Assembly (NCBI GenBank): GCA_964630525.1
Contig: CAZVUY010000003.1
Coordinates: 48,699 to 112,698, forward strand
From: an uncultured Candidatus Saccharibacteria bacterium
GTDB lineage: Bacteria; Patescibacteriota; Minisyncoccia; Phycocordibacterales; WO2-35-19
Direction of reading: 5' to 3'
Length of the DNA: 64,000 nt
Made by a program: the position numbers and the translations under genes. Below, one piece after another: positions 818-42,606 of this stretch. The notes beneath the pieces are model-generated. The model worked only from the letters and a program-made list of their open reading frames with translations, was not told the origin of the DNA and did no database searches. Numbering within the stretch: position 1 is the stretch's first letter; each line of letters begins with the position of its first letter.

Positions 818-1420
818 ATGAAATTTTCACCTAAGATAAAAAATCTGATCGACTTTATAGAATTCAATCACGAATTTAGAGAGGTAATTAGGGTGGCGCG
901 ATCGCCTAATGCTAAGAATTTTGAAAATGATGCCGAACATAGCTACCAACTTGCGATGGTTGCTTGGTATCTGATCGAATCTGACAAATTGAAGCTTAAT
1001 AAAGAACTTTGCTTTATGTATGCTCTTGCACATGATTTGGTAGAAATTTACGCTGGGGATACTTATTTTCTCGATAATCAAAAAGCCGAATCAAAACATA
1101 AAAGAGAAAAAGAGGCGTTATTGAAGATCAAAAAAAGATTTCCTCGTTTTAGATCACTTGTTAAAGTAATTGAACGATATGAAAAGAGGGAAGATGAAGA
1201 GAGTAAATTTATTTATGCAATTGATAAAATCATACCTCCGATCCAAATATACTTAGAGAATGGTAAATTATGGCGAGAGCAAAAAGTACCTTTTGATGGT
1301 TTGATGCAAAACAAAAATCCAAAAATTGCTCTTTCCAAACCAGTCGACAAGTATTGGCAAGAGATGAAAAGGGCGATTAGCAAAAATAAGAAAAAATTAT
1401 TTAATTATGAACACCACTGA
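818..1420 (+). CDS. HD-domain phosphohydrolase (YfbR-like)
   Basis: H...HD motif (EHSYQLAMVAW ... ALAHDLVEIYAGD). Starts 4 nt after the secA stop. Confidence 0.65.
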   Translation: MKFSPKIKNLIDFIEFNHEFREVIRVARSPNAKNFENDAEHSYQLAMVAWYLIESDKLKLNKELCFMYALAHDLVEIYAGDTYFLDNQKAESKHKREKEALLKIKKRFPRFRSLVKVIERYEKREDEESKFIYAIDKIIPPIQIYLENGKLWREQKVPFDGLMQNKNPKIALSKPVDKYWQEMKRAISKNKKKLFNYEHH

Positions 1421-1964
1421 AATCGAATGTCGGTTTTTGGAGATAGACAAGGATGACTTGGTTAAAAAACTTAAGGAGCTTGGGGCGCATGATGAAGGGG
1501 AAAATCTTATTGAGGAAACTGTGATTTATGACAAAGATCTGAAGTGGAGAGATGAACAAAAATTCGTGCGGATAAGAAAAGTTGGAAACAAAACCAAGCT
1601 GACTTATAAAGATCAAAAGATACAAACAGTAGATGGTACTTTTGAAATAGAATTTGAGATTGAAGATTACCAAAAAGCTGAACTCCTTTTTCAAAAAATA
1701 GGATTGTGGCCTTACCGACACCAACAAAAGAAGCGACATGCTTTTAAGTTGGATGGAGTTTCGATTGATATTGATTCTTGGCCTATGATTCCAACATATG
1801 TAGAACTGGAAGGTGAATCAGAAGAAGATTTAAAGAGAGTGGCAAAACTGCTTGATTTGGATTGGGAGAAAGCCGATTTCCATAATGCGAGATGGGTGAT
1901 AGAAAATGTTTACAACATTCCGGTCGGCACTTTTAGGTGGTATACCTTTGATAAATGTGAATAA
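1407..1964 (+). CDS. CYTH-domain protein (triphosphatase / class IV adenylyl cyclase fold)
   Basis: N-terminal EIECRFLEI matches the CYTH 'EIERKFL' start. Alternating acidic/basic beta-strand pattern. Overlaps the previous gene by 14 nt. Confidence 0.6.
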   Translation: MNTTEIECRFLEIDKDDLVKKLKELGAHDEGENLIEETVIYDKDLKWRDEQKFVRIRKVGNKTKLTYKDQKIQTVDGTFEIEFEIEDYQKAELLFQKIGLWPYRHQQKKRHAFKLDGVSIDIDSWPMIPTYVELEGESEEDLKRVAKLLDLDWEKADFHNARWVIENVYNIPVGTFRWYTFDKCE

Positions 1965-1965
1965 A

Positions 1966-2481
1966 ATGCGGGGAACTATTCCAGAATTTGGTATAAAACG
2001 GGAAAATGAGGAGCACCGAGATGGTGGTTGTGGAGTGGTTTTTGATCCGAAGACACAAAAATATGCGGTAGGAGAAAAAACTGATTCTGGTTTTTTTATA
2101 CTATTTTCAGGCGGAGTTGATAAAGGTGAAGATATAAAAGGGGGGATTTTGAGAGAGGTGACCGAAGAGAGCGGGCTTTACGATTTTGGTCATATCGAAA
2201 AGATAGCTGAAGCTTTTACTCATTATCGAAATACGGCGAAAAATGTAAACCGTGTCGCCCATGCGACGTGCTTTCTGGTTATTTTAAAGAGCACAAATTT
2301 GAAAAATACCAAACTAGAAGAACACGAAAAATTTGTTTTAAAATGGAAAACTTTGGAAGAAATTTTTGCTAACTGGAAAGAAAGCAATCAAAATAAAGAC
2401 AATGATCATTGGTTTTATTTTATGGAAAAAGCTGTCGCTCGAGCAAAAGAACTTGGATATGACAAGACAAGCAAAATATGA
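1966..2481 (+). CDS. NUDIX hydrolase
   Basis: Nudix box GGVDKGEDIKGGILREVTEESGL. ATG at 1966 directly after the CYTH stop; the track ORF starts upstream at 1906. Confidence 0.7.
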   Translation: MRGTIPEFGIKRENEEHRDGGCGVVFDPKTQKYAVGEKTDSGFFILFSGGVDKGEDIKGGILREVTEESGLYDFGHIEKIAEAFTHYRNTAKNVNRVAHATCFLVILKSTNLKNTKLEEHEKFVLKWKTLEEIFANWKESNQNKDNDHWFYFMEKAVARAKELGYDKTSKI

Positions 2482-2639
2482 AAAAACGGACCGTTGAAAA
2501 AATCCATCACTTTAGTTGTGAGAAGTGCAAAAGATGGTGGAGTGTAGGGGACGCGCCTCCTGAAAAGAAAAACTGGTTTTGTCCTTGGTGTGGTAAGGAA
2601 AATTTATACAAAAATCCACGGCCGTGGGAAAGTGTATAA
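2478..2639 (+). CDS. Small zinc-ribbon protein (53 aa, 2x CxxC)
   Basis: Its ATG overlaps the NUDIX stop (ATGA). CEKC...CPWC motifs. Below the ORF track's 60 aa cutoff. Confidence 0.4.
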   Translation: MKKRTVEKIHHFSCEKCKRWWSVGDAPPEKKNWFCPWCGKENLYKNPRPWESV

Positions 2640-2723
2640 AATGTAGCGATTAATTGCTACAAAATGGGAACTTCCTTTTTTGTTAGAGATGTGTAAGATT
2701 GAGGAAGGAAGGAGATTGATTGT

Positions 2724-2951
2724 ATGACAATTGACCTAATAGACGCTCGTTTTGAAGAAGAGAGGAAGAGGACAAAAAAGTGTTTGGATCAAGTGCTCCA
2801 GTATCTTTCACATGACACTTCTCCTACTCGAAAAAAACTTGCTGAAGTTTTGAGGCAGCAGGCTTATCTGGTTGAATCAGAATCCAATATAGATTGTTTT
2901 TCAGCTAAGTATGATATGACTGGAAAGGATGAATATGTCTGCGAAGATTGA
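2724..2951 (+). CDS. Hypothetical protein (75 aa)
   Basis: ORF with upstream GGAAGGAGA RBS. Confidence 0.4.
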   Translation: MTIDLIDARFEEERKRTKKCLDQVLQYLSHDTSPTRKKLAEVLRQQAYLVESESNIDCFSAKYDMTGKDEYVCED

Positions 2952-3285
2952 CAGCGATCTCAAGCAAATGGACATCGGTTCTCTTAGACGAGAAGTGATG
3001 AAACTACGCAGAGCCATTCGCCTGGAGCTGAGGCATACTGGCAATCGGCGCTGTTGGATCAACTTGGCAAATGTTTTGCCAGAAGGGGGCGAAATCTGCC
3101 CTCTGAATCTACCAGAAGAAGAGTTTCTGAAGAATTGTGCTCGTTATTACAAGCGCAACAAGAGGAAGAATCCAATTGAAAGAAATAACTTGATCAAAGT
3201 CATCCAAGAGATCGCAGAAAACCAAAAGCAGTTTGATGATTATAAGAAAAGGTCGGGATTGCGCCACTTGACCTTCACCTTGTGA
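2929..3285 (+). CDS. Hypothetical basic protein (118 aa)
   Basis: ORF overlapping the previous gene by 23 nt. Confidence 0.4.
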   Translation: MNMSAKIDSDLKQMDIGSLRREVMKLRRAIRLELRHTGNRRCWINLANVLPEGGEICPLNLPEEEFLKNCARYYKRNKRKNPIERNNLIKVIQEIAENQKQFDDYKKRSGLRHLTFTL

Positions 3286-3380
3286 CTTTTAGAGTCCGAT
3301 GCGAGAGACGATCTCGTGTCGGACTTTCGCTTTTTGGGCCAGTATTTTGCTATAATTCGACTTACTAATAACAAAAAATT

Positions 3381-3626
3381 ATGGAAGGATTTCAAAGGCC
3401 TAATACGGTGGAAGGAATAACGAAAATAATAGAAAATTTTGCCGAGCAAAATGAAATGGCGATTGAGGATTTATTTTCTGATGTGCTTACTTTTGCAGAA
3501 TTAGCTGAGGCGGGTGATGGGGCAGAAGAATATTTTGTTGAAATGGAGGAGTTAGCCGGTATTTCTAGAGCAGAAATGATCCAAGCGGCAAATGCGTATA
3601 AAGAGTCTCAAGAATCAGAAGAATAA
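3381..3626 (+). CDS. Hypothetical acidic protein (81 aa)
   Basis: ORF. Very acidic C-terminal half. Confidence 0.4.
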   Translation: MEGFQRPNTVEGITKIIENFAEQNEMAIEDLFSDVLTFAELAEAGDGAEEYFVEMEELAGISRAEMIQAANAYKESQESEE

Positions 3627-3628
3627 TT

Positions 3629-3943
3629 ATGGAAGAGTTAAATAATCAGGAACGTTTTGGGGATTTTAAAAATAGAATTTCAGAAATTTTTAAAACGGAA
3701 GGTCTTTCTGAAAACTTATTAGCAGAAGTAGAGAAGTGGCATAATCGCAGATATGAAGAGACTGATAGGCAAGGTGGCACCATAGAACAAAGAATTACCT
3801 TTCAGATGGAATTGGCAGAAATTTATCTAATCACAGAAAGGGTAGATCTTGCTTTGGAGATTTTAGATGATGCTTGGACTCAGGCTGATCAAGAAGGTTT
3901 ACAGGATCTTGCAGCTAAAATTGGAGATATAATAAGAGGTTAA
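3629..3943 (+). CDS. Hypothetical acidic protein (104 aa)
   Basis: ORF starting 2 nt after the previous stop. Confidence 0.4.
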   Translation: MEELNNQERFGDFKNRISEIFKTEGLSENLLAEVEKWHNRRYEETDRQGGTIEQRITFQMELAEIYLITERVDLALEILDDAWTQADQEGLQDLAAKIGDIIRG

Positions 3944-3965
3944 TGAGTTATCTAAAATAGATATT

Positions 3966-4110
3966 AAAAACGGCTGGGAGCGTAAGCTGCCAGCCGGGGG
4001 CGTCGGGTCTCTTGGGTTGTTCGCATAACAAACTCATTGTAGGCGTCCCACAAACGCCTCGTTGTTCGGCCCGCAGGGCGCAGGCCTACACCCGACATTG
4101 GTCATATGAT
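3966..4110. ncRNA. Candidate structured non-coding RNA, class unknown
   Basis: GC-rich intergenic block in an AT-rich genome. An 11-bp stem with a GUAA tetraloop lies at 3971-3996. A long-range 7-bp pairing joins GTCGGGT (4002-4008) to ACCCGAC (4090-4096). Internal hairpins are AGGCGT/ACGCCT and TTGTT/AACAA, and GTTGTTCG occurs twice as a direct repeat. Confidence 0.3.
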
Positions 4111-4167
4111 AGCCAAGTTACTCATTTGGTCAAGTTGCCGTTTACGATTTAATGTGTACTATGAATT

Positions 4168-4851
4168 ATGGAAAGGCTCTGTATGTCCAAAAAATTCAAC
4201 AATGGCTATGCGTTTGAGCGATATGTATTCGGTGAGCCGATCTTAAAAAGGGAGGCTCACCAGATCCAAGCGTCAGCGATCACTTTCAGCAATGCTTTAA
4301 GGAGGGTGATCGCCAATGCAAACGGGCATTTGCATTCTCAGCACCCTAAAACAGAAGTAGGGAGAGATTTGTGGCATTTCGTGCGCAAATTTTTGGTTGC
4401 AGCTCAATTGCCCATTCAGAAGTTTGGGTTCTATTCTGCCATCAAGACAGATGCCGACTTTCGGTACGGGGTCGATGGCTTCTTTTATTTGGTTAGCCAA
4501 GACAAGGAGGCTTTGGCAATAATTGACGCTTTTCTGATTCCGAATTTTCTGATTGAAAAATTGGAAAACCGGCAATTCAGTTCTTGTTCGCAAGTCCAAG
4601 ATGAGTTGTACCGGATGAAGAGAATCATCAGACAGGTAAAACAGTCAAATCCAAACAATGAGTTAACCTGGCCCCAATTTTGGCAAATATATAACAACAA
4701 AGAATCCGCGAAAGAATTTGTGAGGTTCAAGAATTCTTTCGTTTTTACCCAGTATGATTTGCGTAGGCCAAAGGGGATCAAGGAGTTGGGTAAAGAGATC
4801 GCCAGGTCCCTCTTTTGGCAGATACGACCCGGGGTAAAGTTATCTTTCTAG
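4168..4851 (+). CDS. Hypothetical protein (227 aa)
   Basis: ORF directly downstream of the structured RNA candidate. No recognisable domain. Confidence 0.45.
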   Translation: MERLCMSKKFNNGYAFERYVFGEPILKREAHQIQASAITFSNALRRVIANANGHLHSQHPKTEVGRDLWHFVRKFLVAAQLPIQKFGFYSAIKTDADFRYGVDGFFYLVSQDKEALAIIDAFLIPNFLIEKLENRQFSSCSQVQDELYRMKRIIRQVKQSNPNNELTWPQFWQIYNNKESAKEFVRFKNSFVFTQYDLRRPKGIKELGKEIARSLFWQIRPGVKLSF

Positions 4852-4862
4852 CTTCGGAAGGA

Positions 4863-4896
4863 AGCGGCCAGTTGGAGGCTGGTCGCTTTTATTTTG
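4863..4896 (+). terminator. Rho-independent terminator
   Basis: AGCGGCCAG-N7-CTGGTCGCT stem followed by TTTTATTTT. Confidence 0.5.
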
Positions 4897-4936
4897 AGGG
4901 TGTAATAAGATTATCGATATCAAATAATTACATTTA

Positions 4937-5575
4937 ATGATCGAATCACTCATACTTTTTTTACAGGTCAATGTTTTGCCGCTCGGGGCGCTCGGGGTAT
5001 TTTTGGCGAGCGTGATCGAAGAGGTGGTAGCTCCCATTCCATCGGCTCTTATCATGACCATGTCGGGCTTTCTGTTGGTGTCCGGGCCGGTCTCGGTTGG
5101 GACAATAACAAGCTTATTACTCAAAGTCGCGCTGCCCGCAGCCTTGGGAGTGACGATCGGCTCTTACGTCGTTTACTTCGCGGCTCGTTATGGTGGTAAG
5201 TTTGTAATTGAAAAATGGGGTAAATATATAGGTCTTTACTGGAGCGATATCGAAAAGTTACAAAACAAACTTTCAGGTACAAAGAGCGATGAACTTTTGA
5301 TAGCTGGAGCCAGAGTGCTACCGATTGTACCATCGGTCGCCATCTCGGCATTTTGCGGAATCATCGGTATGAATGCCGCCAAATATTTCCTGATTAGCTT
5401 GGTTGGCACGTTTCTAAGGGGGATTATTTTGGGTAGTATTGGTTGGCAGGTGGGCAATGTTTACGCTCGGTATGCCAAAGTGGTCGCTTCAGTAGAAAAT
5501 ATAGTGCTTTTATCCACCGTTTTTATTTTTATCGGATTTGTTGTGTTAAAATATAAAGGTAAATTGGGGGAGTGA
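4937..5575 (+). CDS. DedA/VTT-family membrane protein
   Basis: LGALGVFLASVIEEVVAPIPS motif. Multi-pass membrane protein. Confidence 0.75.
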   Translation: MIESLILFLQVNVLPLGALGVFLASVIEEVVAPIPSALIMTMSGFLLVSGPVSVGTITSLLLKVALPAALGVTIGSYVVYFAARYGGKFVIEKWGKYIGLYWSDIEKLQNKLSGTKSDELLIAGARVLPIVPSVAISAFCGIIGMNAAKYFLISLVGTFLRGIILGSIGWQVGNVYARYAKVVASVENIVLLSTVFIFIGFVVLKYKGKLGE

Positions 5576-12810: not shown

Positions 12811-12883
12811 TGGACCCTACCAGATTCGAACTGGTGACCTCCTCATTGCAAATGAGGCGCTCTACCAACTAAGCTAAGGGCCC
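12811..12883 (-). tRNA. tRNA-Cys (GCA)
   Basis: Cloverleaf folded by hand: acceptor GGGCCCU/AGGGUCC, anticodon loop UUGCAAU, T-loop UUCGAAU. 73 nt. Confidence 0.85.
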
Positions 12884-15902: not shown

Positions 15903-15976
15903 TGCCGGGTCGTCTAATGGTAGGACATCAGGTTTTGGTCCTGAGTATCGGGGTTCGAGTCCCTGCCCGGCAGCCA
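15903..15976 (+). tRNA. tRNA-Gln (UUG), CCA encoded
   Basis: U1-A72 acceptor pair, anticodon loop UUUUGGU, T-loop UUCGAGU, terminal CCA. Confidence 0.8.
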
Positions 15977-22638: not shown

Positions 22639-22968
22639 GTATATATTGATGACAGACCCCAAAACCCTGCATAGCTATGCAGAACTAAGAAAACGTCGCA
22701 TACTCGCGTTTAGGGCTTAGCAAAAGCTCTGTAGTGCGATAGATTCAAATGGATAGCCGTAAGTGCTATCATGTAAATACAACTGAATATTGGCCCGTAA
22801 AGGGCAGGACCTAAACCCGAAAGGGCATGGTCCCAAATTCGCAAGCAACATAGAGAACCCGTCATTAGGGCGTTGCTTGCGTTACTAGGGGAAACCCTAG
22901 TAGAGGAGTCCGCGAGGCCCTTCCTAGTGGCGGGCTTTCTGTTTCTATTAAAAACGCAAGCAACAAAC

Positions 22969-42321: not shown

Positions 42322-42507
42322 ATGGTGAGTCCAGGGTTTGGGTATAATAATACCCCGAGAAGACAACTGCGTCAGGCAGCAAAGGAGGAAGCGGTAATTT
42401 GTTCCTGCTGCTTCAAAAACTCGTTGGCTCATGCCAACAGGTTTGGGACTTGTCGCGGTTGCCGGCAAGTTCTCAAAGGATACGAGAAGGTGGCCAAGGT
42501 TCAGTAG
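42322..42507 (+). CDS. Small Cys-rich protein (61 aa)
   Basis: CSCC...CRGC motifs. Confidence 0.3.
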   Translation: MVSPGFGYNNTPRRQLRQAAKEEAVICSCCFKNSLAHANRFGTCRGCRQVLKGYEKVAKVQ

Positions 42508-42606
42508 TCCTAGGGAGGGGCTTCGAGGTGTTTACCCCGGAGTGCTAGGCCCCGCACACGTTGTTGATGCGGGGCTTAATCGTGCCAACCACTTTTTGAT
42601 GCTATA

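Follow-up and report, generated by a model that had tools for sequence, protein, structure and literature searches.

Between a strain-variable cluster of small genes and an uncharacterised gene, a segment of an uncultured Candidatus Saccharibacteria genome carries a GC-rich, highly structured block (positions 3966-4110 of the 64,000-nt stretch analysed, hereafter the window). The question is whether this block is a leader of the gene that follows it or an RNA gene in its own right, and on which strand. The block is present as the original prediction described it, stems and 8-nt repeat included. GC content is 0.59 in 4000-4099, compared with 0.27-0.40 in the flanks, and its best 90-nt value (0.62) is the joint highest among the 35 non-coding segments of the window (mean 0.41); a tRNA gene reaches 0.61. 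The one other segment at 0.62 looks non-coding and owes its value to features at 42322-42577, namely a 61-codon Cys-rich ORF (CxxC...CxxC; 42322-42507, plus strand) and a GC-rich hairpin (GGCCCCGCA...TGCGGGGC; ~42540-42577). Rfam models identified tRNA genes at 12811-12883 (minus strand, 72.2 bits) and 15903-15973 (plus strand, 58.6 bits).

The individual pairings described for the block were also recovered. These are an 11-bp stem (CGGCTGGGAGC/GCTGCCAGCCG, 3971-3996) with a GTAA loop and a single G-G mismatch (C-C on the minus strand), a long-range 7-bp helix of GTCGGGT (4002-4008) with ACCCGAC (4090-4096), and the direct repeat GTTGTTCG at 4016-4023 and 4061-4068. The internal hairpins exist too, but on the minus strand they number three (4068-4086, 4042-4058 and 4019-4033) rather than the two that had been counted. 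The plus-strand fold has a free energy of -59.4 kcal/mol (z = -1.96), with 7 of 200 dinucleotide shuffles equally good, and the minus-strand fold one of -60.4 kcal/mol (z = -3.27), a value matched by none of 200 shuffles. The structure therefore exceeds an effect of composition, mainly on the minus strand, which had not been considered before. Pair by pair, the minus strand is favoured again: the core has 25 pairs there, every one standard, three of them being G-U pairs (one in helix H1, two in H3) that become C-A mismatches on the plus strand, and no core pair shows the opposite asymmetry. The minimum free energy of the core is 2-6 kcal/mol better on the minus strand in each of the three sequence variants of the element (V1, V2 and V3, described below).

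The two ends of the block read in the same direction. On the minus strand, the hairpin 3996-3971 (-17.7 kcal/mol in the window) is followed by UUUUU, whereas the plus strand continues as GGGGGCG without a U tract, so the hairpin can be an intrinsic terminator in the minus sense only. An automatic terminator scan missed it, presumably since its stem-loop criteria call for a stem that the internal C-C mismatch interrupts. At the opposite end, TTGACC and TATCAT form the only sigma-70-like site with at least 10 of 12 consensus matches in 3500-5200, as judged by match to the consensus; such matches are scarce (4 in 10.6 kb, both strands). Both hexamers are identical across the three variants, with one change in the spacer, and the putative start at A4099/A4098 lies 2-3 nt before the first base of P1, the helix that closes the core.

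Together, the promoter, the closed structured core and the terminator probably delimit a minus-strand gene of ~134 nt running from 4099 to 3966, both ends being predicted (Table 1). We give a probability of about 0.6 to the reading that 3966-4099 is a free-standing, minus-strand, non-coding sRNA gene with its own promoter and terminator. In such a gene, the sigma-70-type promoter TTGACC-16-TATCAT (4133-4106, minus strand) would start transcription at about A4099. The RNA would fold with the 7-bp P1 closing three hairpins joined by A/C-rich single strands, followed by a C5 linker, and transcription would stop at the hairpin and U5 tract of the intrinsic terminator. The gene would be transcribed divergently from the downstream 222-aa gene and would lie outside the mRNA of that gene.

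Table 1. Features of the predicted sRNA gene (positions in the window; motifs are given as read on the minus strand).
Feature	Position	Strand	Remarks
-35-like hexamer TTGACC	4128..4133	-	16-nt spacer to TATCAT; 10/12 consensus matches
-10-like hexamer TATCAT	4106..4111	-	ends 7-8 nt before A4099/A4098
Predicted ~134-nt transcript	3966..4099	-	ends predicted from the -10 box (5') and the U-run (3')
P1 5' strand GUCGGGU	4090..4096	-	7 pairs with 4002-4008, invariant in three variants
P1 3' strand ACCCGAC	4002..4008	-	pairs with 4090-4096
H1: GGCCUGC / loop GCCCU / GCGGGCC	4068..4086	-	7 pairs
H2: GGCGU / loop UUGUGGG / ACGCC	4042..4058	-	third pair (4056/4044) changed on both sides in V3
H3: GUUUGU / loop UAU / GCGAAC	4019..4033	-	6 pairs, two of them U-G; invariant
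First CGAACAAC copy	4061..4068	-	H1/H2 junction; unpaired except for the first C
Second CGAACAAC copy	4016..4023	-	H3 3' strand running into junction AACCCAAGAG
Linker G/U + CCCCC	3996..4001	-	between P1 and the terminator; C-run invariant
Terminator hairpin	3971..3996	-	-15.7 to -18.7 kcal/mol in three variants
U5 tract	3966..3970	-	directly after the terminator hairpin; UUUUC in V2

The minimum free energy and alifold structures of all three variants consist of P1, H1, H2, H3 and the terminator. Long, A/C-rich junction strands of 9, 8 and 10 nt connect the helices (GAACAACGA, UACAAUGA and AACCCAAGAG). CGAACAAC, the minus-strand reading of the plus-strand repeat GTTGTTCG, occurs twice and ACAA three times in the junctions, and CCC or CCCCC runs occupy unpaired sites. 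In 95 nt of random sequence, we estimate the chance of an exact 8-mer repeat at about 6%. The linker begins with U in V2 and with G in the other two variants.

The original prediction had offered a riboswitch or leader of a 227-aa "orphan" ORF as one identity of the block. The ORF itself (4183-4851, plus strand) most likely starts at ATG 4183, encoding 222 aa, rather than at 4168. This ATG, an SD-like GGAAAGG and a -10-like TACTAT (4157-4162) align with the corresponding sequences of two related loci (L003 and L004), both of which lack the RNA. Nor is the ORF an orphan, as it belongs to a CPR-wide, uncharacterised family of ~210-250 aa that a profile search found in Zambryskibacteria and Paceibacterota, with the invariant residues D92, D98, D115 and R181. 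A first AlphaFold model of the ORF, built from 6 sequences, was unusable (pLDDT 51). In Zambryskibacteria the homologue follows secD-secF after 36-45 nt and no RNA is present; in the window the ORF lies a few genes after secA. Upstream of its homologues the RNA is absent from L003, L004, L025 and L026-L031, Zambryskibacteria loci included. Since these homologues, the distant CPR ones included, do without it, the RNA is neither partner nor leader of the ORF family and is better described as a lineage-specific neighbour. The first ~20 codons of the ORF (4183-4250) stand out in a separate respect: 15 of 17 synonymous codons are shared between V1 and V2 loci (counted over the first 19 codons), compared with ~40-50% in the remainder of the gene. 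Just within the coding region is an imperfect inverted repeat (GGTGAGCC/GGCTCACC, 4224-4268). The shared codons and the inverted repeat could reflect a recombination boundary or a constraint on the 5' end of the mRNA.

A plus-strand, cis-regulatory leader or riboswitch of the 222/227-aa gene, residing in its 5' UTR or in a read-through operon transcript, would fit the position of the element directly upstream of this gene in all three variants. Read-through could include the element, as no plus-strand terminator lies between the preceding 104-aa gene (ending at 3943) and the ORF, and the plus strand does fold somewhat better than its shuffles, as the z-score of -1.96 indicates. Against a leader, three core pairs would be C-A mismatches, and no expression platform was found: a plus-strand terminator-like site is absent from 3943-4183, and an SD-sequestering structure from the 86 nt that lie between element and start codon. 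These 86 nt are AT-rich and contain promoter-like boxes. The aligned -10-like box and SD of the ORF lie downstream of the element and are common to loci without the RNA; the element is therefore upstream of the probable promoter of the ORF, the two being arranged back to back. In the V2 loci, moreover, the upstream gene has its own hairpin and T-run terminator just before the element, and no Rfam riboswitch family matches. The -10 box downstream of the element and the homologous genes without it (in L003, L004, L025 and the Zambryskibacteria loci) thus argue that there is no leader or riboswitch. With pairing asymmetry, promoter and terminator all assigned to the minus strand, we consider this reading extremely unlikely.

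The back-to-back arrangement also bears on the idea that minus-strand transcription from the 4133-4106 promoter controls the amount of plus-strand read-through into the 222-aa gene, by colliding with the read-through transcripts of the upstream operon (transcriptional interference) or by pairing with them (cis-antisense). The plus-strand genes of the window that end at 3943 lack a terminator, and transcription from the two strands should therefore converge across 3966-4099; the -35 boxes of the two promoters are close neighbours (4133-4128 for the sRNA and ~4135-4140 for the ORF). Interference, however, needs neither a conserved four-helix fold nor compensatory changes, and the element is unchanged in the V2 loci even though the upstream gene there has its own terminator. 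We regard interference as the role of the element as very unlikely.

The sRNA gene reading draws its further evidence from the variants. The RNA occurs in three distinct sequences, V1 in the window and seven other loci, V2 in L001/L002 and V3 in L020/L021, which are 92-96% identical. In every case the RNA adjoins the 222-aa gene, and the genomes concerned are close relatives and mosaic. Four positions vary in the 95-nt core, and no substitution breaks a pair. At the H1 pair 4082/4072, V2 has C-G where V1 and V3 have U-G, which would be a C-A mismatch on the plus strand. The third pair of H2 (4056/4044) changes from C-G in V1 and V2 to U-A in V3, a compensatory double change. By our estimate, the chance that two of three random substitutions in 95 nt restore one pair is a few in a thousand; therefore, H2 is regarded as supported and the other helices as merely consistent with the variants. 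P1 and H3 are invariant, and the remaining variable position, 4050 in the H2 loop, is U in V1 and A in V2 and V3.

The terminator is the most variable part of the element, with 5-7 differences in ~30 nt, and the hairpin is retained throughout. Its inner stem reads CA..UC in V1, AC..UC in V2 and AC..CU in V3, a series suggesting that an A-U pair has moved stepwise by one position, V2 being the weaker intermediate (-15.7 kcal/mol, compared with -17.7 and -18.7 in the other variants). The covariation analysis called for by the original prediction gave suggestive evidence, the pairs being kept, with 98% of cells paired as against 33-46% with slid partners. Covariation as high as that observed nevertheless arises in 162 of 500 column shuffles; with only three distinct sequences, 92-96% identical to one another, the pair statistics do not attain significance.

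The same variants bear on whether the transcript is instead, or in addition, an mRNA. Read from AUG 4098-4096 to UAA 3966-3964, the minus strand could encode a 44-aa arginine-rich peptide (MSGVGLRPAGRTTRRLWDAYNEFVMRTTQETRRPRLAAYAPSRF), as a leaderless gene or within a dual-function RNA; the frame has no Shine-Dalgarno sequence, so only a leaderless AUG is possible. The frame is open in all three variants and its AUG falls exactly at the 5' end predicted from the promoter. A run of 44 stop-free codons is nevertheless expected by chance about once in four at 59% GC, by our estimate, and the gene caller annotated nothing here in any related contig. The variants differ by about ten non-synonymous changes, including L->P, W->R, R->C and R->L, against a single synonymous one, and V2 loses the stop codon and gains six residues. 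Two of the amino acid changes, R15C and A19T, are the two halves of the compensatory pair in H2. The peptide is, on these grounds, highly improbable as the product of the gene.

The identity among variants has to be read against their surroundings. The 96% identity of V1 and V2 was first taken as a sign of constraint because the neighbouring ORF is only ~62% identical in protein (55-70% in DNA) between the same loci. An interpretation as strong purifying selection was rejected, as the flanking 75-aa gene is 97% identical in DNA. Because the genomes are close and mosaic and a neighbouring gene is this similar, the identity of the RNA is itself no evidence of constraint, and because the RNA sits in a recently shared segment of the mosaic, the depth of its conservation is shallow. 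In comparison with L002, the 75-aa gene (2724-2951, plus strand) has 97% DNA and 95% protein identity and the 118-aa gene (2929-3285, plus strand) 82% and 78%, respectively. These two genes overlap, match no family and are far better conserved than the nearby 222-aa ORF.

From secA to the RNA (818-3966) the region is strain-variable, and its DNA identity to L002 switches between ~97% and ~55-70% over a few hundred bases. The window has a 611-bp insertion relative to L002 (3356-3966, encoding 81-aa and 104-aa proteins), which falls exactly between the terminator of the 118-aa gene and that of the RNA. The slot upstream holds a NUDIX or a NADAR gene depending on the strain, and HD and CYTH genes are present or absent (L016-L024). 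Judged from these comparisons, the region is a patchwork in which some segments are recently shared and others deeply divergent.

Among 5.8 billion proteins, the close homologues of the adjacent ORF fall into only four 90%-identity clusters, and the contigs of homologues and cluster members yielded 13 RNA-carrying loci. One of the 13 (L022) is broken by an assembly gap: 10 Ns at 2895-2904 of the ENA contig cover H1 and the 5' half of H2, which is not a deletion variant. A covariance model of the element (R1) matches the RNA in all loci of the ORF cluster of the window and in L001/L002, and finds none in L003 or L004, where the ORF is ~60% identical. A Saccharibacteria MAG reached through its AI-2E transporter (L015; 63% identity) has the CYTH-VTT-AI-2E genes and lacks both the ORF and the RNA. 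Junction-only and R/Y-degenerate patterns had no matches in IMG/VR. In JGI metagenomes, the pattern GAACAACGA-N{28,43}-GAACAACCCAAG returned 10 matches, all of them chance occurrences in Glu/Lys-rich coding DNA. A degenerate pattern had no matches in GTDB representative genomes, which thus include no carrier as an exact pattern match, and blastn against phages and plasmids gave chance matches of 27-28 nt at most. All carriers found so far belong to one narrow clade, a relative of Candidatus Saccharibacteria, in which the RNA is a likely lineage-specific addition.

So narrow a distribution in so mosaic a region would also suit an element without any dedicated RNA function, either a GC-rich structured relic of, for instance, a mobile element or decayed gene, or an insulator acting at the DNA or RNA level, whose hairpins would do no more than stop or separate convergent and divergent transcription in an island prone to recombination. 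The 611-bp indel directly at the terminator, the NUDIX/NADAR exchange upstream, the lack of distant homologues in the pattern scans of IMG/VR, JGI metagenomes and GTDB representatives, and an identity to V2 no higher than that of some neighbouring genes are all compatible with this. What it explains poorly is the precise, gene-like arrangement of promoter, closing helix and terminator, and the preservation of pairing by each paired-site substitution, one double change included. The element is also single-copy, without a terminal-repeat or target-duplication signature. A relic or insulator is thus unlikely, in our view.

An intergenic sRNA gene of this kind could still belong to a known family. 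Scanning with Rfam 15 at gathering thresholds assigned no family at 3966-4110, so the outcome that had been named as refuting the original prediction did not occur. With a permissive cutoff (E<=10) over 3850-4250, the only match was a chance one to an archaeal eL15 leader (14.7 bits; gathering threshold 33.7). ARAGORN found no tRNA or tmRNA in 3800-4300 and no Rfam tRNA model matched; a tRNA-like cloverleaf was rejected, the lengths of arms and linkers being unsuitable. 6S RNA is a rod-like helix of ~180 nt in which a large central bubble imitates an open promoter. The suggested 6S-like identity is not supported, as the predicted fold has no long rod and is a closed junction of three short hairpins in a 95-nt core, and no Rfam 6S model scores at E<=10.

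Neither blastn nor a full covariance-model scan found further copies in the 64 kb of the window, and the element is also single-copy in ~150 kb of related loci. A repeat or mobile element (MITE/REP) was rejected on the basis of the single copy and the lack of flanking repeats, terminal repeats or a target-duplication signature in our searches. A novel small RNA is the one identity left of the three first proposed, and it would lie on the other strand than had been assumed. We classify the RNA as a candidate bacterial intergenic sRNA, unclassified by Rfam and narrowly distributed.

That the RNA is transcribed and acts in trans are both inferences, and it is most likely a lineage-specific, trans-acting sRNA. 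Its hairpin scaffold would display repeated CA-rich single strands and C-runs, either for pairing with mRNAs or for an RNA-binding protein. Base-pairing regulation of mRNAs may be its function, an assignment that we make tentatively. It is possible, if somewhat doubtful, that the RNA is a protein-binding sponge offering repeated sites to an RNA-binding protein. A ligand-sensing or other structured role is improbable, and the remaining probability falls jointly on the absence of an RNA function, on coding and on interference. Closure by P1 makes ligand- and protein-binding roles more plausible than they would be for a typical sRNA made of a seed and a terminator. Duplex folding and searches for exact or GU complementarity found no complementary targets above background within the 64-kb window.

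Among base-pairing sRNAs, RsaE/RoxS of Firmicutes and 6C of Actinobacteria (PMC6486639) resemble the candidate in their size (~100-130 nt), intergenic location, own promoter, hairpins and Rho-independent terminator. Like these C-rich sRNAs, the candidate has CCC or CCCCC in the loop GCCCU, the junction AACCCAAG and the linker before the terminator. The likeness has limits: no Rfam model of those families scores at E<=10, those sRNAs lack the 7-bp helix that brings together the 5' and 3' ends of the candidate's core, and searches of the 64-kb window gave no SD-like complementarity to a target. The RsaE/RoxS and 6C families act independently of Hfq or other RNA chaperones. To our knowledge, CPR bacteria mostly lack Hfq.

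The sRNAs CsrB/RsmZ and CrcZ sequester proteins through short single-stranded motifs (GGA and AAnAAnAA, respectively) on a hairpin scaffold. The candidate likewise repeats an A/C-rich motif between hairpins, and AACAAC fits the A-R-N repeat pattern; unlike them, it has two or three motif copies only, and it matches none of these families by sequence or Rfam model. A third likeness is to riboswitch aptamers in which a terminator follows a P1-closed four-way junction, for example SAM-I, and to orphan riboswitch-derived sRNAs such as Listeria SreA; the candidate shares the layout of a multi-helix junction closed by P1 with an intrinsic terminator directly after it. The candidate differs from riboswitch aptamers in matching no Rfam model and in its junction strands, which at 8-10 nt are much longer, and from riboswitches in having no evident antiterminator pairing and no downstream gene on the same strand.

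In a more far-reaching version of the sRNA gene reading, the RNA would be the first of a new class of non-coding RNAs with complex folds in episymbiotic Saccharibacteria and other CPR bacteria, with a P1-closed four-helix junction that binds a small ligand or a specific protein and not mRNAs. The H1 loop GCCCU might then contact the (A/U)GGG of the H2 loop and compact the fold, and the RNA might spread between strains by recombination within the variable island. We consider such a class distinctly unlikely.

Saccharibacteria and other CPR bacteria are epibionts with tiny genomes and few classical regulators, and a search of the literature available to us found no paper on regulatory RNAs of these groups. 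An sRNA gene running from promoter to terminator with a defined fold, if real, would offer a handle on post-transcriptional control in them and a new seed for an RNA family; its narrow distribution keeps it a modest candidate. Both the strand and the gene association first proposed from sequence alone appear to be wrong, the structure probably being that of a separate gene oriented away from the ORF.

The window holds another orphan RNA, a LOOT RNA (RF03000) at 22808-22923 on the plus strand, which is a full-length Rfam match (63.2 bits; gathering threshold 46.4). LOOT and the candidate are alike in being GC-rich, structured, intergenic RNAs of the same genome. They differ in having no sequence or structure similarity, as the LOOT model misses 3966-4110 and model R1 misses the LOOT locus. 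The LOOT RNA is preceded, ~28 nt upstream, by a TG-extended sigma-70-like site (22744-22772).
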